NCBI GenBank assembly: GCA_043812975.1
Contig: JBDRLP010000001.1
Coordinates: 1 to 52,421 of the forward strand
Direction: 5' to 3'
DNA: 52,421 nt
From: Candidatus Iainarchaeum sp.
GTDB taxonomy: Archaea; Iainarchaeota; Iainarchaeia; Iainarchaeales; Iainarchaeaceae
Shown here: positions 12,714-41,015 of the stretch, in pieces
Numbering within the stretch: position 1 is the stretch's first letter
Layout of the letters: every line of letters begins with the position of its first letter
The notes under the pieces: model-generated
Seen by the model: the letters and a program-made list of their open reading frames with translations, nothing else
The model's database searches: none
Told to the model about the DNA's origin: nothing
Made by a program: the position numbers and the translations under genes

Positions 12714-13150
12714 TTTTTAGCCTCCCCTACCATTGCTTGAACATACTTCTTTCCCTTGAAGTATCCTCCTTTAATCATCAAATAAATCTGTCTTGCTGGT
12801 TTTTTCAGTTTAACACCGCTTTCTTTCATTTCTTTCAGAACTCTTCTTTGAGCTCTGACATTCTTAATCCATTTTTCTTTCTTGTTGGATCTTGCGTTTT
12901 TCTTTCCTGTTCTTTTACCATGGCCTTTTTTTCTTCCTTTCTTTTTCTTTGCTTTTAAGACTCTGGCCTTTGATTTGCTCTGAAGATTATCCTTTCTTTT
13001 TTTGATAACTCCATCTTTGATAAGTATTCTGACATCCTCTTTTGTCATGGCTTCTTTAACTTTTTGTCCTTCGCTTGGACTGATGTATACTTTGGTTTTC
13101 CCAATCTTGAGGAGTGCTGCTGTGATTGTTTTTGCTTTTTTGTTATCCAT
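12710..13150 (-). CDS. rpl19e: 50S ribosomal protein eL19
   Basis: AMTKEDVRILIKDGVI, GHGKRTGKKNAR, KWIKNVRAQRR. Confidence 0.96.
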   Translation of the reverse strand: MDNKKAKTITAALLKIGKTKVYISPSEGQKVKEAMTKEDVRILIKDGVIKKRKDNLQSKSKARVLKAKKKKGRKKGHGKRTGKKNARSNKKEKWIKNVRAQRRVLKEMKESGVKLKKPARQIYLMIKGGYFKGKKYVQAMVGEAKK

Positions 13151-13265
13151 TAACGGACACCTCCGTTAGCGAGGTGTGCACCTCATTGCAAAACCTTCGG
13201 TTTTGCGATGCCCCGTATCCGAAGGATACAAGGTTGGTAGCACATACATAAAGTTTCAAATTCAT
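13143..13265 (-). CDS. Bridge mini-ORF, 40 aa (MNLKLYVCATNLVSFGYGASQNRRFCNEVHTSLTEVSVNG)
   Basis: ATG overlaps the eL32 stop; TAA overlaps the eL19 start (ATGGATAA). Confidence 0.45.
   Translation of the reverse strand: MNLKLYVCATNLVSFGYGASQNRRFCNEVHTSLTEVSVNG
13151..13261 (+). repeat. Junction element with SD-containing hairpins between eL32 and eL19
   Basis: CACCTCCG...GAGGTGTGCAC...GTAGCAC shared with the copies at 39044 and 40958. Nested GCAAAACC-TTC-GGTTTTGC and GTATCC-GAA-GGATAC hairpins. Confidence 0.85.
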
Positions 13266-13897
13266 GGGTTTAACACCTTGATTCCTTTTTCTATTGCCTT
13301 GTCAACTATTGCCAGTTTTTTCTTTCTTCCGAGTCCTGAAGCAACTCTTATTGCGTGTTTGTCAGGAACATTGTTTATTTCCTGGATTGTTTTAACATTA
13401 AATTCTCTATATCCGCTTGGGTGAATGTCCCTAATTTCTTTAGGCGTCCTGAAACCCTCTTTTGGGGTATAACCATCACACATTTCGTGCTTTACGTCAA
13501 TTCCTCTTGGGAATCTCCATTTGTTCCACTTCGGGTTACTTTTCTTTCTAAGGCTTCTTTTTCCAAACCTTCCTCTGAAAGTAGGAGTTCCCTGTTTCTG
13601 GTTAACTTTTCTTCTTGTTTTAGCAACCGCAGCGTCGGTTTTAATTTGAACCTTTCTGCTCTTTTTCACTTTCTTTGGTTTTGCTTCTTTTGAATCTTTA
13701 ACTACCGTTGCGTCGGTAGGGTGCGCGTCCGCCTTCGGCAGGACTGCTTTAACATCTTTTTTAGCATCAGTTTTTTTTGTTTTAGTTTTAGGTGCAGCTG
13801 CTTTAATTTTCTCTTTAACAGCAACCTTTGCTTTAGGTTTTTCTTTTACTGTTTCTGCTTTTTTAGTTTCTTTTTTTTCTGTTTTCTTTTTAACCAT
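13262..13897 (-). CDS. rpl32e: 50S ribosomal protein eL32 with about 95 aa Lys-rich N-terminal extension
   Basis: PTFRGR, KWRFPRGID, IRDIHPSGYRE. Confidence 0.95.
   Translation of the reverse strand: MVKKKTEKKETKKAETVKEKPKAKVAVKEKIKAAAPKTKTKKTDAKKDVKAVLPKADAHPTDATVVKDSKEAKPKKVKKSRKVQIKTDAAVAKTRRKVNQKQGTPTFRGRFGKRSLRKKSNPKWNKWRFPRGIDVKHEMCDGYTPKEGFRTPKEIRDIHPSGYREFNVKTIQEINNVPDKHAIRVASGLGRKKKLAIVDKAIEKGIKVLNP
13696..13753 (+). repeat. Palindromic element copy, in frame in eL32 (AVLPKADAHPTDATV), flanked by 7-bp direct repeats
   Basis: CTTTAAC at 13696-13702 and 13747-13753; insert plus one repeat is 51 nt (17 codons). CTACCG-TTGCGT-CGGTAG and GTCCGCC-TTC-GGCAGGAC hairpins. Confidence 0.9.
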
Positions 13898-13907
13898 TTC
13901 AATTCAC

Positions 13908-14447
13908 CTAAATTGTTTTCGCTTTCTCCGTAATGTAAATTCCGTCAGTGTAAACTCTAATATCTTTTCCTTTGATTTTTGTAGCTTGTTCCATGTTAGC
14001 TGCGGTCTGGCCAACGTGTTCTTTATTCTGTCCTGATACTGTAATGTCTTTTCCTTTTATCTCGACTTTTGTATTTCCAACAATCTTTGCTTTTCTTTGT
14101 TTTTTTCCGCCTGCAAGATTGTTTATTTCAATAATTCCGTTATTTACTTTTACTGTCATTGGGAAGTGACTGTAAACAACTTCTAATTTGTAAACAAAAT
14201 CTTCTTGTAATCCTTTCATAAGGTTTTTGACGTGAGATCCTATTGTTTTGCTTTCCGCCAGAACATTTTTTCTTTCGATTTTTATCCAGACTTCGATTTT
14301 TGAATCCGCTTTTTTAAGCAAAACTTCTGTTGATCTGAAGTGTCTTATGTTTTCTTTCCCGTTAGCACTTACTTTAATGTCGTTTCCATTAAGCTCTACT
14401 TGTATTCCTTCAGGAATTTCAATTGTTTCTACTAGTTTTTCTGCCAT
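13908..14447 (-). CDS. rpl6: 50S ribosomal protein uL6
   Basis: YSHFPM, VGQTAANMEQ, KDIRVYTDGIYI. Confidence 0.97.
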   Translation of the reverse strand: MAEKLVETIEIPEGIQVELNGNDIKVSANGKENIRHFRSTEVLLKKADSKIEVWIKIERKNVLAESKTIGSHVKNLMKGLQEDFVYKLEVVYSHFPMTVKVNNGIIEINNLAGGKKQRKAKIVGNTKVEIKGKDITVSGQNKEHVGQTAANMEQATKIKGKDIRVYTDGIYITEKAKTI

Positions 14448-14457
14448 TTTTAATCAC

Positions 14458-14850
14458 TTAGTAAACGTATGCTAACAGCCTTCCCCCGGTCTGCATTTCT
14501 TTTGCTTTGTTGTGTGTGGTTACGCCTTTTGGAGTTGAAACTATTAATGTTCCTATATCGTAGGAAGGCAAGTATCTTTTTTCGAACTTTTCATACTCTG
14601 TTTTTTTTACAGCATATCTTGGTTTAATTGCTCGGCATTCGTTTATTTTTCCGACTAATTCAACCTTGAAAAGACCTTCTCTTCCGTCATCAATAAACTC
14701 AAATGTTCCGATGTAACCTTTTTCCTGCAATATTTTCAGGATTTCTTTGAGTAGTTTTGACGCTGGCCTGATTACGCATTCTTTCTTTGATGCGTTCTCT
14801 GTATTTTTAAGGTTTATTAGTGCATCTGCTATAGGGTCGTTTCTACTCAT
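14458..14850 (-). CDS. rps8: 30S ribosomal protein uS8
   Basis: [28 protein letters not shown]. Confidence 0.97.
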
Positions 14851-14865
14851 CCAAAATCATCTCCT

Positions 14866-15024
14866 TTAATCATACTTCCTGAATCCTATTTTTTCTGCAT
14901 TTTCTTTGAAACATCTTCTGCAAAGTTGTAAATTATATTTTCTAATCACGCCTTTGTGTGAACCACATCTTTTGCATATTTGTGGCTGTACTTTCCATGG
15001 TTTTATTATTTTATTTTCACTCAT
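14866..15024 (-). CDS. rps14: 30S ribosomal protein uS14 (52 aa)
   Basis: Below the ORF track cutoff; manual translation [55 protein letters not shown] overlaps the uL5 stop. Confidence 0.95.
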
Positions 15025-15533
15025 TCTACTTCAACCCCGAACTTTTCCTTTACAAAATCTATTGCCTCGTTTTGATGAATCAAGTGTGAATGTAAAATCT
15101 TTGACTTGCCAATTTTTCTTCTTTTAATCCTGTAACCAGGTCTTTCCAAAGTAACCAATACATCAAACCCCTTGATTCCGAGCTTTGGATCATACTTTGC
15201 TTTTGGTAAATCAATATATTCTTTTACTCCAAATCCGAAATTTCCCTGTTTGTCAAAACTCTTTTTCTTTATCTTCTTATCTTTTGCAAGGAATGCTTCA
15301 GTAAGGAATATCTCTGCTTTGTTTCCTCTAAGTGTAACTTTTGTGCCGATAGTTAATCCTGGTCTTAAACCCCAGTCAGGTTGTTTAACCTTACACTTTG
15401 TTAGTGTTGGCTTTGCTCCTGTAACTTTTTCGAGAATAGTCGTAGCTTTCTTTAATTCTTCACCTTTCTGACCAACACCCATGTTGATTGTGACTTTCTC
15501 TACTTTGATTTTTTTCATTTTATTATCCGCCAT
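15021..15533 (-). CDS. rpl5: 50S ribosomal protein uL5
   Basis: [36 protein letters not shown]. Confidence 0.97.
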
Positions 15534-15680
15534 AATAATCACTCTGCTTCCACCGTTGCGTCACCCTTGCGGGTACTCCCTTCGGTCGCGGCGGAGTACG
15601 CGTCCATCTCGCCCGTTAGGGATGGACTCGGTAGGACTTGCTCATTTCGTTTGCATTTCACCATAATAATCACTCTGCTT
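15530..15680 (+). repeat. Composite junction element (15550-15660) flanked by a 20-bp direct repeat of the eS4/uL5 junction
   Basis: CCATAATAATCACTCTGCTT at 15530-15549 and 15661-15680; contains several family modules. Confidence 0.92.
15539..15664 (-). CDS. Bridge mini-ORF, 41 aa (MVKCKRNEQVLPSPSLTGEMDAYSAATEGSTRKGDATVEAE)
   Basis: Starts at the ATG of the upstream repeat copy and ends exactly at the duplicated eS4 stop. Confidence 0.5.
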   Translation of the reverse strand: MVKCKRNEQVLPSPSLTGEMDAYSAATEGSTRKGDATVEAE

Positions 15681-16837: not shown

Positions 16838-16838
16838 T

Positions 16839-17240
16839 TTATGCAACTCCTGCGCTTATTCCTGCTATTTTTGGAAACCTTTCACCGACTTCCTTTGCAA
16901 CTACTCCTTTAACCTCTGATCCTTTTGGTAATCCTTTTTCATCAACCAAAACAACCGCATTGTCCTCAAACTTTACTCTTGTTCCATCAGGTCTTCGGTA
17001 TTCTTTTTTCTGCCTGATTATAACTGCTTTTTCAACTTTCTTTCTTATTTCAGGTTTTCCTTTCTTAACAACAACATTGCACATTTCCCCGACTCCGCCT
17101 CTTGGGTGTGTGCCTTTTCTTCCGTGATACTTGTAAACAGTAATTATCCTTACTTCTTTTGCACCTGAATTATCTGCACAAATACACCTGCTTCCAAAGC
17201 CCAATGCTCTAACCGGTGATGCGCTCATTGCTTTCATCAT
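16839..17240 (-). CDS. rpl14: 50S ribosomal protein uL14
   Basis: [27 protein letters not shown]. Confidence 0.97.
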
Positions 17241-18120: not shown

Positions 18121-18122
18121 TC

Positions 18123-18340: not shown

Positions 18341-19198
18341 TCACTCTTTTTTATCCTCAGCTTTTTCTTCTTTAACTTCTTCCTTTTTTTCTTCAGGCTT
18401 CTCTTCCTTTGCTGGTTTTTCCGCTTTTTTCTCTTCTTTTTTAGGTTCTTTCTTTTCCTTAACTTCAGTTTTTTCTTTAGTTTCCTTTACTTTTTTCTTC
18501 TTTTCTTCTTCTTTTGAAATTTCTTTAGTTGCATCTTTTGTTTCTTTTTCAGTTTCCTCAGTTTTTTCTTTTTGTACTTCGGAAGCTTCTTCTTTTCCTT
18601 TAATATAATCTGTAATCTTTTCCTTATCCGGGAAAACCGTGTCAGGATGCACAATTTTAATTTTAATCCCGATTGCTCCTACTTTAGGGTAAGCATCTGC
18701 TTTACCATAATCAACAAGTCTTGCTTGCTCTCCGACTTTTTTCAAATAACCATAAGCAATTCTCTGTTTTCTTTTTCTTCCCGCTTTTCCAGCAATCTTT
18801 CCGCTTAAAATAATTTCTAACCCCTGCGCTCCGGCTTTTTTGGTTTCGTTTACTGATTTAAACACAATACTTCTCCATGAGAATCCTCTTTCAATAAGAG
18901 CTTTCATCTTGTTTGCAACAGCTTGTGCATCAAGTTCAGGATTTTCAATTTCTCTAATCTCTAATTGCGGGTTATCAATGCCAAATCTGCTTCCGATTGT
19001 TTCTGTTAATTGTGTAATGTTGGAACCGCTTTTTCCGATTGCAAGCCCTGGTCTTGTAACATTAACAACAATTCTTGTTACTAATGGGGTTTTCACAATC
19101 TCTGATTTTGTAAAGCCGGCCCTTTCAAGTTCTTTTGAAAGATAATCGTCCAGTTCAAGTTTTTTTAATCCCTGTTCAATGAAATATTTTTCTATCAT
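18341..19198 (-). CDS. rps3: 30S ribosomal protein uS3 with Lys/Glu-rich C-terminal tail
   Basis: KTPLVTRI, RPGLAIGKSG, ERGFSWR; start at 19198 overlaps TAATG. Confidence 0.97.
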   Translation of the reverse strand: MIEKYFIEQGLKKLELDDYLSKELERAGFTKSEIVKTPLVTRIVVNVTRPGLAIGKSGSNITQLTETIGSRFGIDNPQLEIREIENPELDAQAVANKMKALIERGFSWRSIVFKSVNETKKAGAQGLEIILSGKIAGKAGRKRKQRIAYGYLKKVGEQARLVDYGKADAYPKVGAIGIKIKIVHPDTVFPDKEKITDYIKGKEEASEVQKEKTEETEKETKDATKEISKEEEKKKKVKETKEKTEVKEKKEPKKEEKKAEKPAKEEKPEEKKEEVKEEKAEDKKE

Positions 19199-19394
19199 TA
19201 TTTGGCCTCCATCCACAGTTTCGGCTGTGGGCTACGATAACCCAAGCTCCTTTCAGTCGCATGGGTTTGGCTCACTCCGTTCGCTATAATCATTATTTGG
19301 CCTCCATCCACAGTTTCGGCTGTGGGGTGCACGTACCATCTTCGCTTGTGCTCGATGCTACTTAAAATATTAAAAATCATTATTTGGCCTCCAT
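19194..19394 (+). repeat. Two tandem junction elements between three copies of a 19-bp uL22/uS3 junction
   Basis: ATCATTATTTGGCCTCCAT at 19194-19212, 19289-19307 and 19376-19394. Both inserts begin CCACAGTTTCGGCTGTGGG. Confidence 0.93.
19198..19380 (-). CDS. Bridge mini-ORF, 60 aa (MIFNILSSIEHKRRWYVHPTAETV...KLWMEAK)
   Basis: ATG overlaps the uL22 TAA; reads through both inserts; its TAA overlaps the uS3 ATG. Confidence 0.5.
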   Translation of the reverse strand: MIFNILSSIEHKRRWYVHPTAETVDGGQIMIIANGVSQTHATERSLGYRSPQPKLWMEAK

Positions 19395-19850
19395 TACAAC
19401 TATTTCCAAGTGGGTTGATTTACTCTGCCTTCTTTTACCTGAAATTCTCCCCTGACTCTGGTATGAAGCCCTCTGGAAGCCTTGGGATGCGAACATGTGT
19501 GTTATCAAAAGATTTTCTGAATCAAGACCTTTGTAATCTGCATTAGCCTGTACTGATTCAAGTAACTCAACAAAAGCAGCTAAACATCTTTTTGGATATC
19601 TCCCTATTTTTGTGAATCCTTTTGAGTCTCCTTTTTTGTGTCCGATTTTTTTGTTATATTTTCTTAATGGTAAGAATTCTTCTTCGTTAATTATTCTCTG
19701 TAACCATGCTAATGATTTGTCAACCCTTTTTCCTTTAATATTGCTGATGATTTCCACACTATATTTTAACGAAACCGGCTTGTTTTTCATCATAGCCTGT
19801 GCGGTTTTTTTGGAATTGATTTTCTGCACTTGCATTGTTTTCTTTACCAT
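19380..19850 (-). CDS. rpl22: 50S ribosomal protein uL22
   Basis: GRYPKRC, NADYKGLD, THLEIVV. Confidence 0.96.
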   Translation of the reverse strand: MVKKTMQVQKINSKKTAQAMMKNKPVSLKYSVEIISNIKGKRVDKSLAWLQRIINEEEFLPLRKYNKKIGHKKGDSKGFTKIGRYPKRCLAAFVELLESVQANADYKGLDSENLLITHMFASQGFQRASYQSQGRISGKRRQSKSTHLEIVVMEAK

Positions 19851-20989: not shown

Positions 20990-21067
20990 TTATCTAACTC
21001 CAACGCCGTTTGCGATCGGCGGTACCGCGCCCACCTTTGGTAGGGCAGATGTATTTTTTATAGCCAT
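20990..21067 (-). CDS. Bridge mini-ORF, 25 aa ([25 protein letters not shown])
   Basis: ATG overlaps the uL23 TAA; its own TAA lies 1 nt before the uL2 ATG. Confidence 0.5.
   Translation of the reverse strand: MAIKNTSALPKVGAVPPIANGVGVR
21001..21047 (+). repeat. Junction element between uL23 and uL2
   Basis: CGCCG-TTTGCGAT-CGGCG plus GCCCACC-TTT-GGTAGGGC; closely matches the copy at 34207. Confidence 0.85.
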
Positions 21068-21546: not shown

Positions 21547-21556
21547 TTCAATTCAC

Positions 21557-22459
21557 CTAAGCTTTTGCCTCACCCGAGCGTGCTCTTCCTCTGCGAGGAC
21601 CTAAGGGTCGGGAGGGAGCGTCCACCTTCGGTAGGACTTCCTTTTTTACTTCTTTCTTTTCACCAGCTAATTGTTTAATTGCATTCTCTGACCAGAGAGT
21701 TAATCTTCCCGGTAGAGTTCCTGGTGCTAAAAGATCAGCATTAATATTAACCGCACTTATAATGTCAACCCCTTCAAGGTTTCTTGCTGCTTTGTAAACA
21801 TTCTCTGGGTTTTCAACTACAATCAAAACACTTTTTCTTTTCTTGTATTTTCTTCCTCTCTTTTTTCCTTTTCCAGGTCTTAATTGTCTTTTACTCAAAG
21901 CCTTTTCTACATCCTGATAAACATCAATTGCTTTCAAAGCATCTCTAATATCTTTTGTTTTTGCAAGGGTTTCAAGCTTTGCTTCAACAACAATCGGAAA
22001 CTCTAATTTTTCTCCAAACTTGTGGCCTCTTTCTTTTACTAATTCTTTTTTTCCTGTTGCTGCGATTGCTGATTCAGTTGCCTGTCTTTTTTCTTTTTTA
22101 TTTATTTTTTCTTCCCATTCTTTGTTTGGCTTTGGAGGGTGTGCTTTTGGGCCTCCAACAACAGCCGGAATACTAGCAACGTGTCCTGAAAGGATTCCTC
22201 TTCTGTTTTTCAATCTTGGCTTTCTAGCATGGCCAACGTTAATTGTTCTGTGAATATTAGGTTTGTGCCTAGCTCCGATATATTCCGCAGTGTTTGCCCT
22301 TCCTGCTTCAGGTTTAGGGAAACTGTTTTGAACACCAGCAGACTGAATTGCCTGCACTGCTCTTTTAATAAGTGCTAGATTAATATCCGCAGAGAACTGC
22401 TTTGGTAAAGTAATATCAGGACCTTTTGTCCCATCCAAACCTAAAACACTAGCTTTCAT
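21557..22459 (-). CDS. rpl4: 50S ribosomal protein uL4
   Basis: VVGGPKAHPPK, KINKKEKR, RPGKGKKRGRKYK, LLAPGTLPGRLT. Confidence 0.97.
   Translation of the reverse strand: MKASVLGLDGTKGPDITLPKQFSADINLALIKRAVQAIQSAGVQNSFPKPEAGRANTAEYIGARHKPNIHRTINVGHARKPRLKNRRGILSGHVASIPAVVGGPKAHPPKPNKEWEEKINKKEKRQATESAIAATGKKELVKERGHKFGEKLEFPIVVEAKLETLAKTKDIRDALKAIDVYQDVEKALSKRQLRPGKGKKRGRKYKKRKSVLIVVENPENVYKAARNLEGVDIISAVNINADLLAPGTLPGRLTLWSENAIKQLAGEKKEVKKEVLPKVDAPSRPLGPRRGRARSGEAKA
21571..21638 (+). repeat. Palindromic element copy, in frame at the uL4 C-terminus (EVLPKVDAPSRPLGPRRGRARSG)
   Basis: GCGTCCACC-TTC-GGTAGGACT module plus CCTC-TGC-GAGG hairpin. Confidence 0.85.
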
Positions 22460-29363: not shown

Positions 29364-32300
29364 TTAGTCCATGAAAAATGAAGCAGGTTTTACTTCAGGA
29401 TCCATTCCTTTTCTCTTTCTTATTTCTTCAATAGTTGATTTTTGTAACTCACGTGGCAGTAACTCGTATCCTGCGTATTCAGCAGTCCAAAGAGCTCTTC
29501 CTTGAGTAGCCCCCCTGATGTTGCTTGAGAATCCGATTAGTTCTTTTACTGGGGCTTTTCCGATTATAATACTAGAATCTCCTTCAGTCCTCATTTCATT
29601 AATTTGAGTCCTTCTGGAGCCTAGTTCATTACTTACTGCGCCCAGGTAAGTTTCTGGAACTGTAATTGTAAGTTTTTGTTTTGGCTCATACAACACAGCA
29701 TCTGCTGAAAGCATACAAGCATAGCATCCTCTTGTTACTGTTGGCAACATTTGCGCAGGTCCCCTGTGAATTGCATCTTCGTGTAATGTAGCGTCTTCAA
29801 TTACAACTTTTACTCCAAAGCATTTTTCTTTTGCTAATGGTCCCTGATCCATTACATCAGTAAAACCCTGAATAACCAATTCTCTGATTTCGTGTAAAGC
29901 TTCAATTCCTCTTGTTGCATCAACTAAAACACAGTTGTTGTGTACTGCCCAGATTTTTTTGGATTCTTCTCTTCCAAAACCCATTTCCTGGAACATTGTA
30001 ATCTTTTCTTTATCTTTTGGCTTAACTTTTCCATCAAAATGTGACTTGATAAGATTCTGTCTTGTTTCCTCATCAATTAATTCAACGTGCAATTTCAGCT
30101 TGTTGTGTTTGTTAGGGCTTTTTGCCTCAACTGTTGGTGAATCCTTTCCAATAGTTTCACGGTAAACAACAATTGGCTGTGAAACTGTAATTGGAATGTT
30201 GTGGTGTTTTTCAATTCTATATTGAGTAATTTCTAAGTGTAATTCCCCCATTCCTGAAAGTAAATGTTCGCCGGTCTCCTGATTGATTGTGGCTCTTATG
30301 TTAGGGTCTTCTTTGGTAATTTGTCTTATAGTTTCAATTAACTTTGGTAAATCTTTTGTGCTTTTTGCTTCAACTGAAATTGTTATTACTGGTTCTGCTT
30401 CACTCATAAAACTTTCGAATGGTTTTATTTCTTCTGAAGCAATTGTTTCTCCAGCATAAACTTCTTTCAAACCTACAAGTGCTACAATGTTTCCTGCAGG
30501 AACTTCATTAGCTTCAATAAAATCCGGGCCCATAAAAATCCCGACTTTCTGAATCTGGATTTCTTTTTTTCCGCCGACCAAATAAACTTTACTTCCTTTT
30601 TTTACTTTTCCTGAATAACATCTTCCTGTTGCAATATCTCCTGAATGTTTATCAACACTAACATCAGTAACCATCATTGAGAATGGACTATTTTCATTAC
30701 AAGTAATCATTCCTTTTCCCATTTCGCTTTCCTTTTCCCCTTTCCAGATTATAGGCATCCTGTATTTTTGTGCCTCAATAGGATTTGGCAAATGAGTAAT
30801 AACCATTTCAAGTACAGCGTCACTTAAATGACTTTTTTCAGCAAGTGATTTTTGATCTTCATTTTTTAAGTATTCGTAAACCTGTTTGAAATTAATTTTA
30901 GTAGCTTCCATTCTTGGAACTGATACTGCCCAGTTATTGTAAGCTGATCCAAAGCACACAGAACCATCCTGGACTTTTACAGTCCACTCGTTTTTGAATC
31001 CCAGAGGACAGTTTTTTGAAATTAAATTATTAACATTAGCAATAACTTTCACAAACTTTTCCTGCATCTGCTGTTCAGTAACCTGCAGTTCGTTAATAAG
31101 CCTGTCAACTTTGTTAATATACAAAACAGGTTTTACGTATTCTCTCAAAGCCTGCCTTATTACTGTTTCTGTCTGCGGCATTACTCCTTCAACAGCATCA
31201 ACAACTAACACAACTCCGTCAACAGCTCTCATTGCTCTGATTACATCCCCTCCAAAGTCAACATGCCCCGGAGTATCAATAAGGTTGATTAAGTGCTCTG
31301 TGTCTTTGTACTTGTGTAATAGTGAAATGTTTGCAGCATTAATTGTTATTCCTCTTTCCTGTTCCTGATCCTCAGAATCCATTACAAGTTGCTTTCCAGC
31401 TAACTCTGAACTCATTAATCCTGATGCAGAAATAAGGTTATCTGTCATCGTGGTGTTGTGAACAACTATTGTTTCTGCTACAAAATTTTTTGTTTCTGGA
31501 ACACTAAAATCATAAATTGTTTCCTCAAAACCATCTTTTATTCCAGAAACCTCGATAAAAGCTAATTGACTAACATCTATTGCGGAGTTAATCCCTTTTT
31601 CTTTTAGTTTTAAAACCATTTTTTGATAAGTGTTTCTTGTCGGTATATAAATTTCGTTTTCGTATTTGTAATAATGTTTGTCTATTTCATTTTTTGATAA
31701 TTGTTTTCCTTCCCTTGATTCTTTAAATCCATTCATGGGTATTAGATCACATACCTGGCTTCCAACAATGGTTTTTTCCAGTTCTTTTGCTTTTTTCATT
31801 TTTTCCGGCAAAAAGAAACCAATATTTTTAACAAAGTTTGAGAATGATTCCCCGCTGATGGATATTGTATTGTCTTTTTCCTTTATTGCTACACATCCGA
31901 ATCTGTTTAACAATAATGGCAGCTCATCAATCATTTGATTGCTGGCACTGCTAATTGTGATTGCTTTTCTGCCTGTTTCAACGCTTCCATCAGTATCGAA
32001 GTAGCCCTTTAAAAATTTGGTAACCAACTCAGATGGAGACTTTTGCAGGAATTTTGATATTTTTACGTTGTGTGATTTTTTCTTTAAAGGATAATCAAAC
32101 AGTGCTTTTAGAATGTTTGTTAATGTTTTACTCACGCCTATTTCCGGTGTTTTTCCTTCATAGTTTCTGTTGTGTGTTTTTAATCCAAATTCTTTGCATA
32201 TTCTTTTGAATTCTTTTCCGAGTAAAGGTTTCCCGACAACAAATTTGCTTTCAGTTCCGTCCCCTATCATTAATCCCGCTAAATAAAATAATTCTTTATA

Positions 32301-33086
32301 GTTTGGTTCCCATTTTAAGTAATCGCTTCTTCTTGTTGCAATTCCACCAATCCAATTAACAATCGCTTCTTCTTCAAACTCAAAGTAATTAGATATTCCG
32401 AATAAATCAGTTAGTTGATATTTCCCGTTCCAAATACAATGATAGAATGATTTTTCTTTTAGGTTAGTTTTAATGTTTTTATAAATTTTATCAATTCCTT
32501 CTTCTAAAATTTTGTTTTTTAAATTTTCAGAAGAGTCTTTTTTTAACTTTGCATAAAAATTGTTTTTTGAAAGTATTTTTAGTAATTCCAGTGAAACATC
32601 CATTTCAGCTATTGTTTTTGTTTCTCTTGCCGTAACAATTCTTTGTCCTTTTTGTATTTCCTCTGCTTTCAAATAAGATAATTCTTTTCCATCAAAAGTA
32701 AGGAACTTGTGTTCTGGTGTTGTGGAAATACTAGATCCGTTTCTTAGGGTAATTTCTTTTGTGTTTCCGCCCTTTAGTTTCCATGCATGGGAAATTTTTT
32801 TTGTGACTATTTTACCTGTTTTTGTATCTACAGAAAAAACTTTGATGTCTTTATTTAAAGCGTAAACAATTTCCGAATTGTTTTCTTTTACTTTTTCACC
32901 ATAAAGAGAAGAGTCATTAAATAATTCTCTTGCGGTTATAAAATTCCCGTTTTCTAATTGTATTCTAGTGTCCGGGGCAACACATTTACCATGGTCAATG
33001 TGGGCAACAATCCCGATGTTTCGGATGTTTTCTCTTTTGTTCATCAGCTGTGCAGCTAATTTTACAATATCTTCTTTTTTTACCAT
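29364..33086 (-). CDS. fusA: Elongation factor 2 precursor with intein (mature protein 730 aa)
   Basis: AHIDHGK|TTMTDNL, ERGITI, DTPGHVDF, NKVDR; diphthamide site DAIHRG. Confidence 0.97.
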   Translation of the reverse strand: MVKKEDIVKLAAQLMNKRENIRNIGIVAHIDHGKCVAPDTRIQLENGNFITARELFNDSSLYGEKVKENNSEIVYALNKDIKVFSVDTKTGKIVTKKISHAWKLKGGNTKEITLRNGSSISTTPEHKFLTFDGKELSYLKAEEIQKGQRIVTARETKTIAEMDVSLELLKILSKNNFYAKLKKDSSENLKNKILEEGIDKIYKNIKTNLKEKSFYHCIWNGKYQLTDLFGISNYFEFEEEAIVNWIGGIATRRSDYLKWEPNYKELFYLAGLMIGDGTESKFVVGKPLLGKEFKRICKEFGLKTHNRNYEGKTPEIGVSKTLTNILKALFDYPLKKKSHNVKISKFLQKSPSELVTKFLKGYFDTDGSVETGRKAITISSASNQMIDELPLLLNRFGCVAIKEKDNTISISGESFSNFVKNIGFFLPEKMKKAKELEKTIVGSQVCDLIPMNGFKESREGKQLSKNEIDKHYYKYENEIYIPTRNTYQKMVLKLKEKGINSAIDVSQLAFIEVSGIKDGFEETIYDFSVPETKNFVAETIVVHNTTMTDNLISASGLMSSELAGKQLVMDSEDQEQERGITINAANISLLHKYKDTEHLINLIDTPGHVDFGGDVIRAMRAVDGVVLVVDAVEGVMPQTETVIRQALREYVKPVLYINKVDRLINELQVTEQQMQEKFVKVIANVNNLISKNCPLGFKNEWTVKVQDGSVCFGSAYNNWAVSVPRMEATKINFKQVYEYLKNEDQKSLAEKSHLSDAVLEMVITHLPNPIEAQKYRMPIIWKGEKESEMGKGMITCNENSPFSMMVTDVSVDKHSGDIATGRCYSGKVKKGSKVYLVGGKKEIQIQKVGIFMGPDFIEANEVPAGNIVALVGLKEVYAGETIASEEIKPFESFMSEAEPVITISVEAKSTKDLPKLIETIRQITKEDPNIRATINQETGEHLLSGMGELHLEITQYRIEKHHNIPITVSQPIVVYRETIGKDSPTVEAKSPNKHNKLKLHVELIDEETRQNLIKSHFDGKVKPKDKEKITMFQEMGFGREESKKIWAVHNNCVLVDATRGIEALHEIRELVIQGFTDVMDQGPLAKEKCFGVKVVIEDATLHEDAIHRGPAQMLPTVTRGCYACMLSADAVLYEPKQKLTITVPETYLGAVSNELGSRRTQINEMRTEGDSSIIIGKAPVKELIGFSSNIRGATQGRALWTAEYAGYELLPRELQKSTIEEIRKRKGMDPEVKPASFFMD
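31455..32984 (-). mobile_element. Intein (510 aa) with LAGLIDADG homing endonuclease, in the EF-2 P-loop
   Basis: Begins CVAPDT after GK; ends NFVAETIVVHN before T; TTPEHKF block B; LAGLMIGDG and FLKGYFDTDGS endonuclease motifs. Confidence 0.96.
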
Positions 33087-34169: not shown

Positions 34170-34186
34170 AAACATCAACCTTTTTT

Positions 34187-34342
34187 TTATCTGATTCTTA
34201 CTTCTTCAACGCCGCTTGCGATCGGCACCCTTACGGGCACATGCGGTACCGCGTCCACCTCACTTTGTTCGGTAGGACTTAGTTCCTTGTTCGCAAACTT
34301 TTTCTAATAATTCTTTTCATCACCTAATTCTTACTTCTTCAA
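34187..34342 (+). repeat. Composite junction element (34207-34294) between nusA and rps12, with a duplicated NusA C-terminus
   Basis: ATTCTTACTTCTTCAA at 34194-34209 and 34327-34342; modules shared with 21001 and 21444. Confidence 0.88.
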
Positions 34343-35063: not shown

Positions 35064-36425
35064 TTATTTTTTCATTACAAGAGTTACCCTGCCTGTTCCA
35101 ACCTTAATAGGCTGACCAACTATAATGTTTTCAACAACACCTTCAAGAGTTTCTATTTCTCCCTTGAATGCTGCGTCTAACAAGTGTTTTACTGTTTCCT
35201 CAAATGCTGCTCTTGCGAAAGGACTTGCTTTTCCTCTTGTGATTCCTGTTCTTACAATTCCTCTGATTTCTCCGTCAAAGCACATTGAATCAGCTAATAG
35301 CATTATATGTCTTATGTCAACTGCAATACTATTATCCTTCAGAACTCCAGATAATTCATTTACAATCGCCATTCTTCCTGCTTCAATTCCCAATACTTTG
35401 CTGATTTCTTTAATGTCATTAGTGGTTGTTTTTGAACCATTAATTTCCGGCAGTTTCACAATTGCTTTTAAGTTAGTGCCTCTGGTTTTAATGACTTTCT
35501 CGTTGTTCTCATCTATAAGAATAACTTTTTCAATTCCTCTGATTCCCTGAATCCTTGTTGATTTCAGTTTGTTCATGGTTCTTCTGATTTTTAAAAGTGC
35601 TTCATTTTTGAAAATAAAATCAAGCAAATACTTGTCTTTTCTTTTCCCCTCCATCTTTATGTGCTTATTGATTTTTGCAACAAGCTCATCAATATCAACA
35701 TTTCTTGATTCGATTGCTTCCTTATCAAGTTCAATTGTAACTTTTCCCTTGAATAAATCTTCATGAATTTTAATAACATCATCAATTCTTACATCAATTA
35801 ATGTTTTTGCAAAAGCATCAAGTTTTTTCTCATCTTTATTTAATTCTTCATCATCGATGTAAATTGTCATTATAGGATATTTAGCTTTTAATCTCCCGTC
35901 AACAATTTCTTCAACCCTCTGGATTCCTGATCCAACACTTACTTCTGCAGAACCCGCATAGTGTTTTGTTCTAAGTGTCAATTGTGTTCCTGGTTCCCCA
36001 AGACTTTGTGCAGTAATAATTCCTACTGCTTCTCCAGGTTCAACCATGCTTTTTTCATATCTTTCTTTAACTTGTGAAAATAGTTTTTCTTTTTCCTTGT
36101 CATTAATTTTTAATTCATTAGCGACTGTTTCAAAATCCATTAATACTTTTTTAGGAATTCCTTCTGTTTCAAAAAGATCTCCTTGTACAAATACTCTTTC
36201 AACTTCCACTACTTCTTTTTTGGTTGTTTTTTTTGGTTTCTTAACTGTTTTAGTGGTTTTTTTAGCTGTGGGTTTTGCCTTTTCACTCTTATCTTTGGTT
36301 GTGGTCTTTTTCATAGTTTTCTTAACCCCAGCACCCTTACGGGTACCTTCGGCGGGACTCCTTTTGGTCGCTGCTTTTTTTGTTTCTTTCTTTTCTTTTT
36401 TCTTGGTTTCTTTTTTTGCAACCAT
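35064..36425 (-). CDS. rpoA2: RNA polymerase subunit Rpo1C (A'') with Lys/Thr-rich N-terminal extension
   Basis: [38 protein letters not shown]. Confidence 0.97.
36326..36372 (+). repeat. Palindromic element copy, in frame in Rpo1C ([16 protein letters not shown])
   Basis: Near-identical to the copy at 21444. Confidence 0.92.
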
Positions 36426-36430
36426 AAAAA

Positions 36431-39043
36431 TCACTTACTCCTCATTTTTTCGAGTTCCCTCTGAACTGAAATGCTTCTTCCCTTGAATGTTTTCTCCGGG
36501 AATATTCCGTCTTCACCATACTTGTACTGTATAATGTTCTTGTTAGCCGTCCTTACAGTTGAATCATTGTTAACAACAAGATCTTTCAGACTGTTTGCAA
36601 GTCTTCTGTATAAGTAACCAGAAACTTTTGTGGATACTCCTGTGTCTACTTCTCCTTGTCTTCCGCCCATTGCGTGGTAAAAGAATTCAAAGCTTGTCAT
36701 TCCTTCCATAAAGTTGTGGTAAATAAATCCGCCTGCGTCAATTCCTACATCGTTCTTATGGTTTAAAGCAATTAATCTGTTGGCGAATCCTCTTTTTGGT
36801 CTTCCTTCTCTTACAGAAGCCTGTCCCCACATTCCTGAGAGGTTTACAAGGTTGATTATGTTTCCTCTGGAACCTGAAAGTATCATCACATTGCTATCGT
36901 ACTCTGGTTCATCTATCAGGACACTGTCAACAATTTCTTTTTTGATTTGTTTTTCAAGTTTCCCTTTTGCTTCAGAAGCAGTTCTCATCATGCTAACTTC
37001 GAAACTCTCTTTTAGTGTTCTTCCCGGGATAAGTTCTAATGTTCCTTTTTCGTATTTCTTCACGTGTTCTTTTGCAATTTCAGCCATTTCTTCAACAGCT
37101 TTTTCTCTGATTTTCAGAACCTTTTGAGTTGGCTTGTATTCTTCTAAACTATTTGTCATTCCAACTTCAGTTATTAAAGTTGCAACCATTTTTGAAAGTG
37201 AATCATAAAAGTTTGTGATTACTTCAGGAGGATAATCCCTTGCTAAAGCATCAACAAGTTTTCCTCTTCCTTCTCCAAGGCTCATTGAGTCAATTACTCC
37301 TGATTTCAAAATGCCGTTTTCAATCTTAACAATAAGATCGTTCTTGTAAAGGTCCTTCAGCAAAGGGTGATTCTTATCAAGATCAGTTATAATTCCCATG
37401 AACTTGCTTTTGTATTCCATGTTAAGGTTTTTTGGAAGTAACTGTGAGAAAATAAGTTTTCCTGAATACTTGTCCTTACCAACATCCGGTTTTGGAATAT
37501 CCTTTAAGCCCATAATCTGGAAAAATCTGAATGCCCTGTCTTTATTGAAAACGGTTTGTTTCATTGTTAAAATGAAACTTGCTGAAACACCATCCTCATC
37601 CAGGATAATTACTGGTCCACCGTGTCTTGGTGAAATAATTTGTTTTTGTACAATCATTAGTTCTATTGCTTCTGAAATTCCTTCAGGAGTCTGTGGAACG
37701 TGCATGTTCATTTCGTCTCCATCAAAGTCTGCGTTGTATGGTTTACAAACAATAGGGTTCATCCTGAAAGTCTTGTCATCCATTATTCTTGCCCTGTGTG
37801 CCATCATTGATAATCTGTGCAGTGAAGGCTGCCTGTTAAACAAAACAATATCTCCGTTTCTGAGTTTTCTGTCTAACCTGTAACCAACATCAAGTTCTTC
37901 ATTAATCAGATCTATGTTTGTTTCAGCAACTTTTCTTCTCATCCCATCAGGTCTTGAAACATAAATTGCTCTTCCATCTTTAATCATTTTTTTAGCTTCA
38001 ACAATGTTGTTTTTTGTTACAATTTCAGGAACTGTCATTGTTTCTGCAATTTCGCTTGGAACACCAAGTTCGTTAATTGAAAGCATTGGGTCAGGAGTAA
38101 TAATAGACCTAGCCGCAAAATTAACTCTTTTTCCTGTTAAATTATATCTGAATCTTCCTTTCTTTCCCTGTAACCTTTGAACAAGTGTTCTTAGTGCACG
38201 TCCTGATCTGTGCTTTGCCGGCGGAACTCCCGCAGTGTTGTTATTGAAATAAGTTGTAACATGGTATTGTAACAAATCCCAAAGATCCTCAATAATAAGC
38301 TGAGGCGCTCCCGCATCAATGTTATCTTTTAATCTTATATTGATTCTGATAATATCTACAAGTTTGTGTGTTAAATCATCTTCACTTTTGATTCCTGATT
38401 CAAGTGTAATGCTTGGTCTCAAGTTTATTGGCGGAACCTGCAGAACAGTCATGATGAACCATTCAGGTCTTAAATCATTAAAGCCGTAACCAAAGAATTC
38501 AACATCTTTATCAGGAATTTTTTCCATCCATTCTCTGATTTCAGTAGGGTATATTCTATCTTTTTCCAAGTAAAAGTTGGTTGGTTTATCAAGGGTCACC
38601 AAGCCTCTTTCAACATTACAATGAGGGCACTTTTTTACCTTCTTGGTTCTTGTCAGGATTTTTTTCCCAATATCCATTGAGTCATCATCTATAAATGGCC
38701 TTAATTGTTCAAGTTTTTCTTCAGGAATAACTATTCTTCCACAATTCTGGCAGCTTGCCTGCATTAATATTTCCAGTTTTTTTCCAAATTCACTGTGAAT
38801 AATTGGTCTTACAACTTCTATGTGTCCAAAGTGACCTGGGCATTTTTTCATTGTGTTTCCGCAGGTCTTACATCTCAAACCTGGGTTTATAACACCTAAA
38901 TGATTATCCATTAATCCGCCTTCCATTGGGAAGCCATCTTTGTCATAAGTTTCAGGGCTTTTGATGTCTATTGCTGACATTTTCCTGATCATTTCAGGGC
39001 TCATAATGCTAAATTCAATTGATTTGATTCTTTTTGTCATCAT
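36431..39043 (-). CDS. rpoA1: RNA polymerase subunit Rpo1N (A')
   Basis: [25 protein letters not shown] catalytic motif. Confidence 0.98.
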
Positions 39044-39129
39044 TACGCGGTCACCTCCGCGTGTGAGGTGTGCACTTCGCTTGGGCTCAGTAGCACTGGC
39101 TCACATCCGTTCGCAAAATCATTTTTCAT
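39043..39129 (-). CDS. Bridge mini-ORF, 28 aa (MKNDFANGCEPVLLSPSEVHTSHAEVTA)
   Basis: ATG 4 nt after the rpoB' stop, with GGTG SD; its TAA overlaps the rpoA' ATG. Confidence 0.5.
   Translation of the reverse strand: MKNDFANGCEPVLLSPSEVHTSHAEVTA
39044..39115 (+). repeat. Junction element with SD-containing hairpins between rpoB' and rpoA'
   Basis: CACCTCCG..GAGGTGTGCAC..GTAGCAC plus CTCACATCCGTTCGC module. Confidence 0.85.
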
Positions 39130-39133
39130 ACAA

Positions 39134-40957
39134 TCACACCTTGTCATCCAATATAAGTTTTGGGTATACTCCCAGTGCTTTTAATTCATCTAATAATAAT
39201 TTGAAACCGTAACTCATCTCAACAGGATAAATCTTAGAATCATTTACTTCAAGAACTCTTTTTGTTTTTCTTAACTGATCCTCAAATCCAATTACTCCTG
39301 CGGTTTCTGAAACCCACATTGTTACTTTGTCAGAATCATCAATGAACTTTTCCTGCAATAACATTGCAGCTCCATGTCCTACTAATGTTTCACCTTCCAT
39401 CTCTCCAAACCTTAATCCGCCTTCTTTTTCTTTTCCTTCAGTTGGTTGTCTGGTTAATATCTGTACCGGGCCTCTTGCTCTTCCCTGTATTTTGTGTGCA
39501 GTCATGTGGAATAGTCTCCTGTATGAAACCATTCCTGTAAAAATTTCTCCGTGCATTCTTTGTCCGGTTGTTCCGTCGTAGAAAACTTCTTTTCCGTTTT
39601 TCTTGAATCCTGAGGTCTCAAGCATTTTTTCAATTTCATCCTCATTAACTCCTCCAAATGGAGTTCCGTCTATTTGTTTTCCTTTTATTGCTGCTGCTTT
39701 TCCGGCAAGCATTTCTAGTAAGTGTCCAATAGTCATCCTTGATGGGATTGAGTGAGGGTTCAAAATTAAATCAGGTTTAATTCCGTCTGGAGTAAATGGC
39801 ATGTCTTCCTCAGGAACAATTAATCCAACAACCCCTTTCTGGCCGTGTCTTGAACTGAACTTATCTCCTAATGCAGGAATCCTTTCACTTCTGATTTTAA
39901 TTTTAACAAGTTTATTTCCTGAGTCAGCTTCTGTAACAAATATTTTTTCAACATGACCTGCTTTTCCTTTTCTGATTGTAATGCTTGCTTCTCTTCTTTT
40001 TTCCTGAACAACACCAAATTCGTTAATCTCTTCTAAGAATCTTGGTGGTGAGGTTTTTCCTATAATAACATCACTTTCGGTTACGTAAGATTCAAGCTGG
40101 ATTAAACCATCTTCTCCAAGTTTTTTGTAATAATCCTCTCCTAAGTGTCCTACGGTGTCCTCAGGGGGTATTTCAAACTTGTCAATCTGTCCACCAGGAT
40201 ATCTGTTTTCTGAACTTTCGTAAGTTCTGTAGTAACTGCTTCTTCCCAGACCTCTGTCGATAGCTCCTTTGTTTAGGATAACAGCATCCAGAATATTGAA
40301 TCCATAGTACGGCATTATCGCTACTACGAAATTCTGGATTTGTGGTCTTTCATTCAAACCAATCATATCCATTGTTTTTGTTTTTACAAGTGACTTTTGC
40401 GGGTAATGAAGTAAATATCCTTCTGTATCTGTTCTTAATTTGTAATTGGCTGCACCAAATCCCTGGGCTTGTTTAAACATTTTTGCACCGTGTAATGCTT
40501 TTCCAGCCATGTTGTGTTCCAAGTATGGAATCATTGAACTCACAATACTCAGAATTACAGCTCCGTCAATTTCCAAATGAGTGTGTTCTTTAGTTAACTG
40601 ATCTTCAGTTGCAGCAATTAGTGCGTTTTCTTCTTCCTCTGAATCAAGGTATTCTATGTAACCTTGTTCAACGACATCATTCCAAATAAGCTTCCTTTCA
40701 TGGACCTGTTTAACAATGTCCTCTGTGATTGTTGGTTTTCCGTTTTCAACAACAAGCAGTGGCCTTTGTACACGTCCGGCATCTGTGTTGATGTAAACTT
40801 CATTGGTGTCTTCGTGGAATGCAACATTAACCTGTTCTGAAATTTTTGATTCTCTTCTTCTTGCAATTATTTCTTTTGTAAGTTTTATAGGGTCAGGGTG
40901 GAATCCGATTAGTCTTCCGTTAATGTAAACTTTTGCTTTTTTTGCTTCGCTAACCAT
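39134..40957 (-). CDS. rpoB1: RNA polymerase subunit Rpo2C (B')
   Basis: GDKFSSRHGQKG, PSRMTIG, GGLRFGEME; start at ATG 40957. Confidence 0.97.
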   Translation of the reverse strand: MVSEAKKAKVYINGRLIGFHPDPIKLTKEIIARRRESKISEQVNVAFHEDTNEVYINTDAGRVQRPLLVVENGKPTITEDIVKQVHERKLIWNDVVEQGYIEYLDSEEEENALIAATEDQLTKEHTHLEIDGAVILSIVSSMIPYLEHNMAGKALHGAKMFKQAQGFGAANYKLRTDTEGYLLHYPQKSLVKTKTMDMIGLNERPQIQNFVVAIMPYYGFNILDAVILNKGAIDRGLGRSSYYRTYESSENRYPGGQIDKFEIPPEDTVGHLGEDYYKKLGEDGLIQLESYVTESDVIIGKTSPPRFLEEINEFGVVQEKRREASITIRKGKAGHVEKIFVTEADSGNKLVKIKIRSERIPALGDKFSSRHGQKGVVGLIVPEEDMPFTPDGIKPDLILNPHSIPSRMTIGHLLEMLAGKAAAIKGKQIDGTPFGGVNEDEIEKMLETSGFKKNGKEVFYDGTTGQRMHGEIFTGMVSYRRLFHMTAHKIQGRARGPVQILTRQPTEGKEKEGGLRFGEMEGETLVGHGAAMLLQEKFIDDSDKVTMWVSETAGVIGFEDQLRKTKRVLEVNDSKIYPVEMSYGFKLLLDELKALGVYPKLILDDKV

Positions 40958-41015
40958 ATGCGGAGACCTCCGCATTCAGAGGTGTGCACCTGCGGTAGCA
41001 CCTATTAAAATTCAT
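40950..41015 (-). CDS. Bridge mini-ORF, 21 aa (MNFNRCYRRCTPLNAEVSAYG)
   Basis: ATG overlaps the rpoB'' stop; TAG overlaps the rpoB' start (ATGGTTAG). Confidence 0.45.
   Translation of the reverse strand: MNFNRCYRRCTPLNAEVSAYG
40958..41000 (+). repeat. Junction element with SD-containing hairpins between rpoB'' and rpoB'
   Basis: ATGCGGAG-AC-CTCCGCAT and GAGGTGTGCACC..GTAGCAC. Confidence 0.85.

Follow-up and report, generated by a model that had tools for sequence, protein, structure and literature searches.

GC-rich palindromic elements at the operon junctions of a DPANN archaeon and their candidate translation-relay cassette

The 52,421-nucleotide (nt) stretch of Candidatus Iainarchaeum sp. 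DNA analyzed here (contig JBDRLP010000001.1; hereafter the window) is an archaeal segment of 36% GC in which nearly all genes lie on the minus strand, in the order rpoH-rpoB''-rpoB'-rpoA'-rpoA''-L30e-NusA-S12-S7-EF2-EF1a-S10, followed by the ribosomal-protein cluster from L3 to SecY. Three of these genes, eL19 (rpl19e), rpoA' and rpoB', are preceded by leaders (elements E1, E2 and E3, respectively) that hold the Shine-Dalgarno (SD) sequence in a hairpin adjoining the start codon. We propose, giving the idea an even chance, that these leaders are the 3' module of a lineage-specific family of mobile elements, and that the subfamily with this module (here called SD-type) carries a translation-relay cassette. 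In the best reading of the data, the elements are GC-rich, hairpin-rich insertions of 50-200 nt in a Diapherotrites/Iainarchaeota (DPANN) clade; they lie in sense orientation in highly expressed operons, at the exact boundary between co-translated genes or, in frame, within the Lys-rich tails that ribosomal and RNA-polymerase proteins carry. The nearest rpoB' relatives of the window are metagenome-assembled Diapherotrites/Iainarchaeota genomes (DPANN archaea), and an exact look-up of the eL19 protein retrieved no record.

One module in front of nine genes

The three leaders share the 11-mer GTGCACACCTC, which occurs exactly three times in the window, always on the minus strand (13181..13171, 39075..39065 and 40989..40979), against an expected count of 0 and with no match in any of 100 dinucleotide shuffles. 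Each occurrence lies shortly upstream of a hairpin that flanks GGAGGT and adjoins the start of eL19 (GTGCACACCTC-GC-TAACGG-AGGTGT-CCGTTA-ATG), rpoA' (GTGCACACCTC-AC-ACGCGG-AGGTGA-CCGCGT-AATG) or rpoB' (GTGCACACCTC-TGA-ATGCGG-AGGTCT-CCGCAT-ATG), exactly as quoted in a preliminary description of this DNA. A motif scan of metagenomes returned 79 loci, of which 5 were genuine, the remainder being chance matches in high-GC DNA, and closer inspection of one genuine locus revealed two more copies, for a total of nine together with those of the window. This SD-type set comes from five genomes: the window (E1, E2 and E3) and those labelled L142, L094, L113 and L151, which hold the six external copies. 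The nine copies precede nine different genes, namely eL19, rpoA' and rpoB' in the window and rpoB'', L2, pyrI, S28e, NDK and aIF5B elsewhere, so that the leaders, which the preliminary description implied to be gene-specific, are instead copies of one mobile module. All nine stand directly upstream of a start codon with the canonical 8-nt SD spacing.

The module comes and goes among close relatives. L081, a contig 96.5% identical in rpoB' DNA, contains an almost identical orthologue of E2 and a plain 24-nt spacer (TAAaattgaattagttcAGGTGtgattATG) where E3 sits. In the 90%-identical genome L142, both E2 and E3 are missing and an SD-type cassette is found instead at the rpoH>rpoB'' junction, which in the window is occupied by another family member (E8) with a homologous 5' module. 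At the E3 site, the rpoB'' stop codon is TGA (hence the overlap ATGA) only in the element-bearing genome, being TAA in L081 and TAG in L142. Relatives at 81-86% protein identity show other family members at the same junctions. This turnover contradicts the earlier suggestion that the element would be hard to lose piecemeal.

Such behaviour recalls the Rickettsia palindromic elements (RPEs) and related repeats resembling miniature inverted-repeat transposable elements (Ogata et al. 2000; PMC10969869), which are also short, multicopy, palindromic and non-autonomous-looking, carry an open frame, lie in many cases in frame within unrelated essential genes as tolerated peptide insertions, and vary in presence among close relatives. 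In the family described here, copies lie at unrelated loci and in frame within coding genes, and presence/absence polymorphism is observed for E3 (compared with L081 and L142) and for insertions in rpoA'', L23 and L4 (compared with the relatives L083, L166 and L094). Unlike RPEs, these elements reside in a DPANN archaeal host, as GC-rich islands of an AT-rich genome; many of them are placed exactly at operon stop/start junctions; one subfamily includes an SD, an anti-SD and stop/start overlaps; and neither terminal inverted repeats in the elements nor a cognate transposase in the window was seen.

Pairing, masking and bridge reading frames

The GTGCAC of the 11-mer belongs to a hairpin that had been overlooked, P1 (GUGC-U-ACC(U)/(A)GGU-GCAC, in which a single U is bulged), and provides its 3' arm: the upstream AGGTG formerly put forward as a rival partner of CACCT is present, but it is the 3' arm of this conserved hairpin. 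P1 is a covarying hairpin, with compensatory changes at three of its seven pairs in the gap-free alignment and at a fourth in E2 and L166 (a C-G to U-A pair in E2 relative to other copies; the L166 hairpin, GTCCTACT...AGTGGAC, has the architecture of E2). Elsewhere in the window it recurs with compensated pairs (GTCC/GGAC, GCCC/GGGC, GCC/GGC and ACT/AGT). It belongs to the minimum-free-energy fold of all three leaders when the folded segment begins at the upstream stop and ends shortly after the downstream start codon; in slightly longer contexts its predicted probability is 0.91 in E1, 0.99 in E2 and 0.09 in E3. The distal end of P1 is variable, consisting of a 3-nt loop (which takes the place of a junction in the minimal copies E3, L142, L113 and L151a), of tandem G.A pairs with a mini-hairpin, or of a three-way junction. 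The latter is the long form of E1 (z = -4.5), where P1 encloses two hairpins (GTATCC/GGATAC and GCAAAACC/GGTTTTGC) that covary with those of the L094 copy (GCAGAAT/ATTCTGC and GCAAAACT/AGTTTTGC).

Downstream of P1, two alternative pairings had been postulated, one between ACCUC and GAGGU (state 1) and the other being the SD hairpin itself (state 2). The covariation of the latter is borne out by compensatory changes in the nine copies from five genomes: the 6-7 base pairs differ in sequence in all three window copies with pairing kept, three of seven pairs show compensatory changes, and the observed score was reached in none of 500 shuffles, slid controls also falling far below it. The SD hairpin is, therefore, a selected structure, and the search for more copies with covariation yielded both the six external copies and the compensatory changes. 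State 1 has 5 base pairs in eL19 and rpoA' and 7 in rpoB', because there the spacer UG also pairs; in general, a 3-nt spacer (UGA/UGG) lengthens it to 7-8 pairs and a 2-nt spacer keeps it at 5. The seven aligned sequences show no variation at its five core pairs, and at the two extension pairs pairing is only gained or lost, so covariation says nothing on state 1, either way. ACCTC is also kept in the two further L151 copies, and ACCUC accompanies the SD hairpin in every copy, including the rearranged L151c, in which ACCUCU occupies the loop of a hairpin of its own beside the SD hairpin.

The two states are separated by 0-5.4 kcal/mol (0-4.6 kcal/mol between the forced-state energies of the three window leaders), and state 1 is in these models thermodynamically competitive. 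Both pairings are possible, as had been claimed, but partition-function folding of the leaders gives occupancies that vary widely among copies (Table 1), from 0:0.9 to 1:0, and only eL19 is predicted to be bistable among the three window leaders. What the folding does find throughout is a masked SD, since both predicted states cover it, and the conserved feature is, in terms of predicted folds, masking and not bistability.

Table 1. Predicted occupancy of the two pairings in SD-type copies
Copy	P(state 1)	P(state 2)
E1 (eL19)	0.58	0.31
E2 (rpoA')	0.00	0.90
E3 (rpoB')	0.92	0.07
L142	1.00	0.00
L094	0.87	0.11
L151a	0.74	0.25
L113	0.06	0.91

Masking was expressed as the energy needed to open positions -16 to +3; averaging the unpaired probability over the SD discriminated poorly, as that measure treats loop bases as free. 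Opening costs 14.3 kcal/mol in rpoB', 10.6 in eL19 and 10.4 in rpoA' (ranks 1, 3 and 4 of the 47 window genes, whose median is 4.9) and 13.2-14.9 kcal/mol in the six external copies, whereas junctions without an element, namely the rpoB' and rpoA' orthologous sites of L142 and L081 and the L24e junction of L151, open at 3.9-6.8 kcal/mol. Overall, the SD is base-paired in the dominant predicted fold of the SD-type copies, with opening energies of 10-15 kcal/mol. Their SDs are also the strongest in the window: duplex energies with the 3' end of a consensus archaeal 16S rRNA are -14.3 (eL19), -15.6 (rpoA') and -10.7 kcal/mol (rpoB'), the window median being -6.6. These unusually strong SDs would partly offset the cost of masking, as the sum of opening and SD:anti-SD energy is ordinary for eL19 (-3.7) and rpoA' (-5.2) and unfavourable for rpoB' (+3.6; median -2.2). 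The ribosome-binding sites are, thus, among the most masked of the window, in line with the earlier idea of blocked de novo initiation, but a strict block is unsupported and only rpoB' looks blocked.

All SD-type copies are crossed by a short open reading frame (ORF), here termed bridge ORF, that starts a few nt from the upstream stop and ends a few nt from the downstream start. Among 18 junction elements, 12 have such an ORF compared with 3.2 expected from dinucleotide shuffles of the spacers (P about 2e-7, a value that overstates independence because GC-rich elements are stop-poor in any frame and copies share ancestry). In the nine SD-type copies, the ORF was recognized by script or by eye in eight and by eye in L151a, for which the scan had taken an earlier, duplicated stop as its anchor. 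In each of these copies, the bridge stop lies between -2 and +8 of the downstream start, with overlaps of the type TAATG, ATGA, TAGTG or ATGNNTAA; the bridge starts lie between -1 and +8 relative to the upstream stop and are preceded by an SD that already resides in the last part of the upstream gene (in E2, AAGGTG serves an ATG located 4 nt past the rpoB' stop). Coupling by termination-reinitiation requires overlaps or very short distances and collapses beyond about 20 nt (PMC10666635), and all nine copies have stop and start codons at such proximity. The peptides have no Pfam match, and a conserved micropeptide was rejected, because the reading frame of the invariant 11-mer changes with the spacer (2 or 3 nt), giving VHTS in some copies and CTPL in others.

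Gene callers annotate hypothetical proteins of 32-71 amino acids, devoid of Pfam hits, in the rpoB'>rpoA' or S12>S7 spacers of relatives (L082, 10933-11142; L168, 11828-12043; L165, 17102-17200). Those of L082 and L165 are located in GC-rich family elements and are likely to be bridge ORFs and not genes, and the one of L168, a hydrophobic product of AT-rich DNA, looks unrelated.

A candidate relay and its alternatives

From these features we infer translation of the bridge ORF, reinitiation and, possibly, a role for the ACCUC pairing. The proposed cassette would be composed of four parts: a short ORF whose start overlaps or just follows the upstream stop and which would use the resident SD; the P1 hairpin; the anti-SD-like ACCUC; and a very strong SD (GGAGGUG(A)) in a hairpin of 6-7 base pairs adjoining the downstream start, which the bridge stop overlaps. 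In untranslated mRNA, the ribosome-binding site would be folded by the hairpin, by the ACCUC:GAGGU helix or by either of them, limiting the entry of free 30S subunits. A ribosome reinitiating on the bridge ORF would melt P1, the anti-SD and the hairpin, terminate atop the downstream start and reinitiate there with the help of the freed SD. An insertion of this kind would keep the coupling and stoichiometry of the flanking essential genes and would, therefore, be tolerated. More tentative than the relay proposal, and in our judgement somewhat more apt to fail than to hold, is the wider proposition that this is an undescribed family of translatable GC-rich palindromic mobile elements with a portable relay cassette, able to colonise the tightest essential junctions (RNA polymerase, ribosomal proteins, aIF5B and pyrB/pyrI) without breaking stoichiometric co-translation. 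If the relay is true, it would amount to a natural test of the limits to which coupling can be extended in archaea, with two consecutive reinitiations over 50-130 nt of structured RNA, and an example of a mobile element neutralising its own polar effects in essential operons, that is, of a selfish element paying its way by rebuilding translational coupling; for synthetic biology, the cassette would offer a compact coupling device shaped by natural evolution and comparable to those that have been engineered.

The mechanism is of a known kind (ribosome-binding-site occlusion and termination-reinitiation, with analogues in RPEs and attC sites), while the host and the arrangement are new. The byp elements, reportedly described by Lang et al. 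in 2014, are said to be short, mobile, GC-rich hairpin insertions of Magnusiomyces mitochondria that ribosomes bypass; they are similar in being hairpin-forming insertions in expressed genes of an AT-rich genome that survive since translation copes with them, but byps interrupt reading frames and are hopped over, while the elements described here are open in frame or lie between genes, and no take-off/landing codon pairs were seen in them. In coupling by occlusion and termination-reinitiation (Huber et al. 2019, PMC6728339; 2023, PMC10666635), ATGA and TAATG overlaps, an SD within the upstream frame and a downstream ribosome-binding site that is folded unless the upstream frame is translated are also present; what differs is the proposed insertion of a non-conserved relay ORF from a mobile element, with two successive reinitiations and a dedicated anti-SD. 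Integron attC sites with short ORFs, and ORF-11/ORF-18 of attI1 (Hanau-Bercot 2002; Jacquier 2009; PMC8876359), are likewise palindromic recombination-type elements between co-transcribed genes, with extrahelical bases in their hairpins, whose RNA stem-loops hinder ribosomes and whose short ORFs restore downstream translation by termination-reinitiation. Here, by contrast, the neighbours are core syntenic RNA-polymerase and ribosomal-protein genes and not cassettes, elements also lie inside coding regions, there is no integrase in the window, and the attC length and core sites are unmatched: of the R'' (RYYYAAC) and R' (GTTRRRY) sites, which should be 55-140 nt apart and bound promoterless cassettes beside intI, only E7 has both (ACCCAAC/GTTGAAT), separated by 10 nt, and the SD-type copies have none. 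Leader-peptide attenuation (ermC, cat, cmlA; PMC8876359) shares the short ORF 5' of the SD and the two alternative SD-sequestering stem-loops, but there the SD is opened by drug-induced stalling in the leader, while here the ORF crosses the SD hairpin and ends on the start codon, and both alternative structures mask the SD.

Several observations weigh against the relay. In addition to the non-independence of the ORF statistic, 6 of the 18 junction elements were scored without a bridge ORF, although one of these, at the junction before aIF5B in L151, has an ORF running from the second, duplicated stop and another, E8, is an in-frame fusion with rpoB''. The ACCUC pairing is invariant, and hence lacks covariation support, and its predicted occupancy swings from 0 to 1 among copies. 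Given the strong SDs, opening plus binding is ordinary for eL19 and rpoA', so independent initiation at these two genes may be efficient despite masking. Finally, the window contains no transposase and no insertion mechanism was identified.

These points feed the main rival, in which the element is equally mobile, but its palindromes serve its own spread or stability, as DNA or as RNA (for example, as single-stranded DNA hairpins for a recombinase or transposase, or as protection from RNases), the SD is an ordinary, constitutive strong ribosome-binding site, and the two states and the bridge ORF are by-products of a stop-poor palindrome. Its probability appears low to us, and the offsetting of masking by the SD, together with the drift of the state ratio, keeps it plausible. 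It would explain why the opening plus SD:anti-SD energy is ordinary in two of the window leaders and why the state ratio is not conserved, and it agrees with the CGAAG/GCGAAGC-type mini-hairpin loops found throughout the family and with the extrahelical T of P1, since extrahelical bases also occur in the single-stranded DNA hairpins recognised by HUH transposases and integron integrases. Moreover, family members lacking the SD module have the same P1, and elements are read in frame inside genes, suggesting that openness is a family trait. On the other hand, all nine SD-type copies stand right before a start codon with canonical SD spacing, the bridge ORFs start and stop on the stop and start codons of the neighbours far above shuffles, ACCUC always comes with the SD hairpin and is kept even when rearranged into a hairpin loop of its own (L151c), and the masking energy is uniformly high.

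A regulatory switch, in which the P1 domain or temperature would shift the balance between the anti-SD:SD helix and the SD hairpin to tune RNA-polymerase and ribosomal genes (as a riboswitch or RNA thermometer), is improbable. E1 and L094 do share a covarying three-way junction in P1 directly 5' of the anti-SD/SD platform, and the two states are near-isoenergetic in E1, but the minimal copies have a 3-nt loop and no such junction, the module serves unrelated genes (pyrI, NDK and aIF5B) and is present or absent between near-identical genomes, and no Rfam family was found on any element, either at gathering score or at E <= 5. With the SD masked in both states, a state ratio that is not conserved and minimal copies devoid of a sensor domain, such a switch would have no defined ON state. 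More improbable still is a DNA-level signal, an operator or internal archaeal promoter creating new transcription units, made of the AGGTG-CA-CACCT inverted repeat or of the AT-rich 5' part (TTTAAT/TTTATG). The near-palindrome AGGTGCACACCT is present in E1, E3 and most external copies, and TATA-like strings are found at the 5' ends of E1, E3 and E7; however, the full repeat is missing in E2 (AGTGCACACCT), the TATA-like strings lie anywhere between about 10 and about 70 nt from the conserved core and are common in a 36% GC genome, and single-strand pairing is what the compensatory changes of the SD stem and of P1 indicate. Inspection also led us to reject a K-turn/L7Ae site (P1 has a single bulged U, and the tandem GA of E2, E4 and L166 are not beside a 3-nt bulge), a bulge-helix-bulge intron (which would require two 3-nt bulges around a helix of 4 base pairs; moreover, no splicing is needed, because the ORFs stay open through the elements), hammerhead, twister and pistol cores, and mimicry of the 16S 3' end, while a ribosomal-protein autoregulatory leader was rejected on finding the same module before pyrI, NDK and aIF5B.

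The wider element family

When intergenic gaps and GC-rich islands were listed, about 20 palindromic, GC-rich elements related to one another emerged in the 52 kb, with more in at least 8 other contigs. In the window, besides the SD-type leaders, they are located at the junctions rpoH>rpoB'', NusA>S12, L23>L2, L22>S3 (in tandem), S4e>L5 and S5>L30, and in frame at the C-terminus of L4 and in the tails of L32e, L23, rpoA'', S4 and S13 (Table 2). Recurring modules are P1, GCGTACCC, hairpins of the type stem-(A/C/AU)CGCAA(A/G)-stem whose stems covary, and loops of the CGAAG type; every hit of P1 or of the CGCAA loop is on the sense strand of operons. Such a family accounts for the odd GC-rich spacers of 50-200 nt in the ribosomal-protein and RNA-polymerase operons of this clade, as well as for the spurious hypothetical proteins of 30-70 amino acids and the variable Lys-rich tails in its metagenome-assembled genomes.

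Table 2. Positions of elements and of their parts in the window
Feature	Position	Strand	Description
E1, entire junction element	13148..13265	-	L32e stop (TGA 13264..13262) to eL19 start (ATG 13150..13148); GC 0.47 in a 36% GC genome
E1 bridge ORF	13143..13265	-	40 codons; ATG overlaps L32e stop (ATGA); TAA 5 nt inside eL19 (ATGGATAA)
E1 P1 helix	13176..13243	-	5' arm GTGCTACC 13243..13236; 3' arm GGTGCAC 13182..13176
E1 anti-SD-like ACCTC	13171..13175	-	Pairs with GAGGT 13163..13159
E1 SD hairpin	13151..13168	-	TAACGG(A) 13168..13162; SD GGAGGTG 13164..13158; (T)CCGTTA 13157..13151; adjoins ATG
E2, entire junction element	39041..39136	-	rpoB' stop (TGA 39136..39134) to rpoA' start (ATG 39043..39041)
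E2 bridge ORF	39043..39129	-	28 codons; ATG 39129..39127; TAA 39045..39043 overlaps rpoA' ATG (TAATG)
E2 P1 helix	39070..39096	-	GTGCTACT 39096..39089 with AGTGCAC 39076..39070; distal tandem GA/GA and GC-CCAA-GC
E2 anti-SD-like ACCTC	39065..39069	-	State 1 predicted unpopulated (0.00)
E2 SD hairpin	39045..39062	-	ACGCGG 39062..39057; loop AGGTGA; CCGCGT 39050..39045; SD GGAGGTGA 39058..39051
E3, minimal junction element	40955..41015	-	rpoB'' stop (TGA 41014..41012) to rpoB' start (ATG 40957..40955)
E3 bridge ORF	40950..41015	-	21 codons; ATG overlaps rpoB'' stop (ATGA); TAG 40952..40950 within rpoB' (ATGGTTAG)
E3 P1 hairpin	40984..41001	-	GTGCTACC-GCA-GGTGCAC
E3 anti-SD-like ACCTC	40979..40983	-	With spacer TG gives 7-base-pair state 1 helix
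E3 SD hairpin	40958..40975	-	ATGCGGA 40975..40969; loop GGTC; TCCGCAT 40964..40958; SD GGAGGT 40971..40966
E4	34179..34319	-	NusA>S12; P1 GTCC-T-ACC/GGT-GGAC; GCGGTACCGC; GCCG-ATCGCAAG-CGGC; neither anti-SD/SD-hairpin module nor bridge ORF
E5	20991..21066	-	L23>L2; P1 GCCC-T-ACC/GGT-GGGC; bridge ORF of 25 codons
E6	15534..15669	-	S4e>L5; bridge ORF of 41-44 codons
E7	11416..11497	-	S5>L30; bridge ORF of 29 codons, ATGA overlap at each end
E8	42479..42587	-	rpoH to rpoB'', open in frame with rpoB''; direct repeats GGTGGTTGT(A/T)TAAT on both sides
E9	21556..21649	-	In-frame C-terminal extension of L4 (31 residues), absent in L094; P1 GTCCTACCGAAGGTGGAC read as VLPKVD
Tandem pair	19204..19363	-	L22>S3; each followed by a copy of resident SD and start GGAGGCCAAATAATGAT; 60-codon ORF bridges both

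Some elements that are not SD-type are flanked by direct repeats of 13-17 nt of the resident SD and start. At L22>S3 (19190-19400, minus strand), the resident GGAGGCCAAATAATGAT appears three times around the two tandem elements, a pattern suggestive of a long target duplication or of the junction having been captured repeatedly. The end of the upstream gene is also found as direct repeats around E8 (42479-42600, minus strand) and in L151, where GGATTGGAGTGAA occurs twice (minus strand, about 3980-4090); these repeats suggest target-site duplications of 13-15 nt or, alternatively, selection to keep the resident SD.

With regard to the copies inside genes, the N-terminal tails of rpoA'' (36319-36380) and L23 (21432-21507) contain, in frame on the minus strand, near-identical GC-rich DNA (GCGACCAAAGGAGTCCCGCCGAAGGTACCCGTAAGGGTGC) that encodes the same peptide, and a diverged copy is found in the C-terminal tail of S4 (6660-6741, minus strand). 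Two further Lys-rich extensions, those at the N-termini of L32e (13694-13760) and S13 (7798-7882), both on the minus strand, also contain P1 and an ACGCAA-loop hairpin in frame, read as AVLPKADA...(P/S)TDATV; the Pfam domain of L32e covers residues 125-210 only. Another element, at 49701-49817 (minus strand; GTAGCATC...GATGGTAC, with a CCACAG...CTGTGG hairpin), is located just past the stop of a minus-strand gene at a convergent junction, and co-directional gene pairs are, therefore, not strictly the only sites of the family.

Loops of the type C-GAA-G or GCGAAGC recur family-wide (e.g., 42483-42588, 39077-39083 and 13200-13215, and 9904-10000 in L168). Since d(GCGAAGC) is an unusually stable DNA mini-hairpin, this recurrence hints that single-stranded DNA folding may matter for the spread of the elements. 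A scan of viral contigs gave 28 matches, none of them with P1, hairpin and start codon together. The low-GC viral contig L174 (IMGVR_UViG_3300048554_000481) has, at about 209 on the minus strand, an anti-SD:SD hairpin before a start codon (GCACACCTCTGCATTGCGGAGGTGttgtcATG), which has neither P1 nor a second hairpin and is probably unrelated.

The EF-2 of the window (29364-33086, minus strand) is 1240 amino acids long because it harbours an intein with a LAGLIDADG homing-endonuclease domain, and inteins are also found in rpoB'' of the relatives L082 and L168 and, apparently, in S12 of L082.

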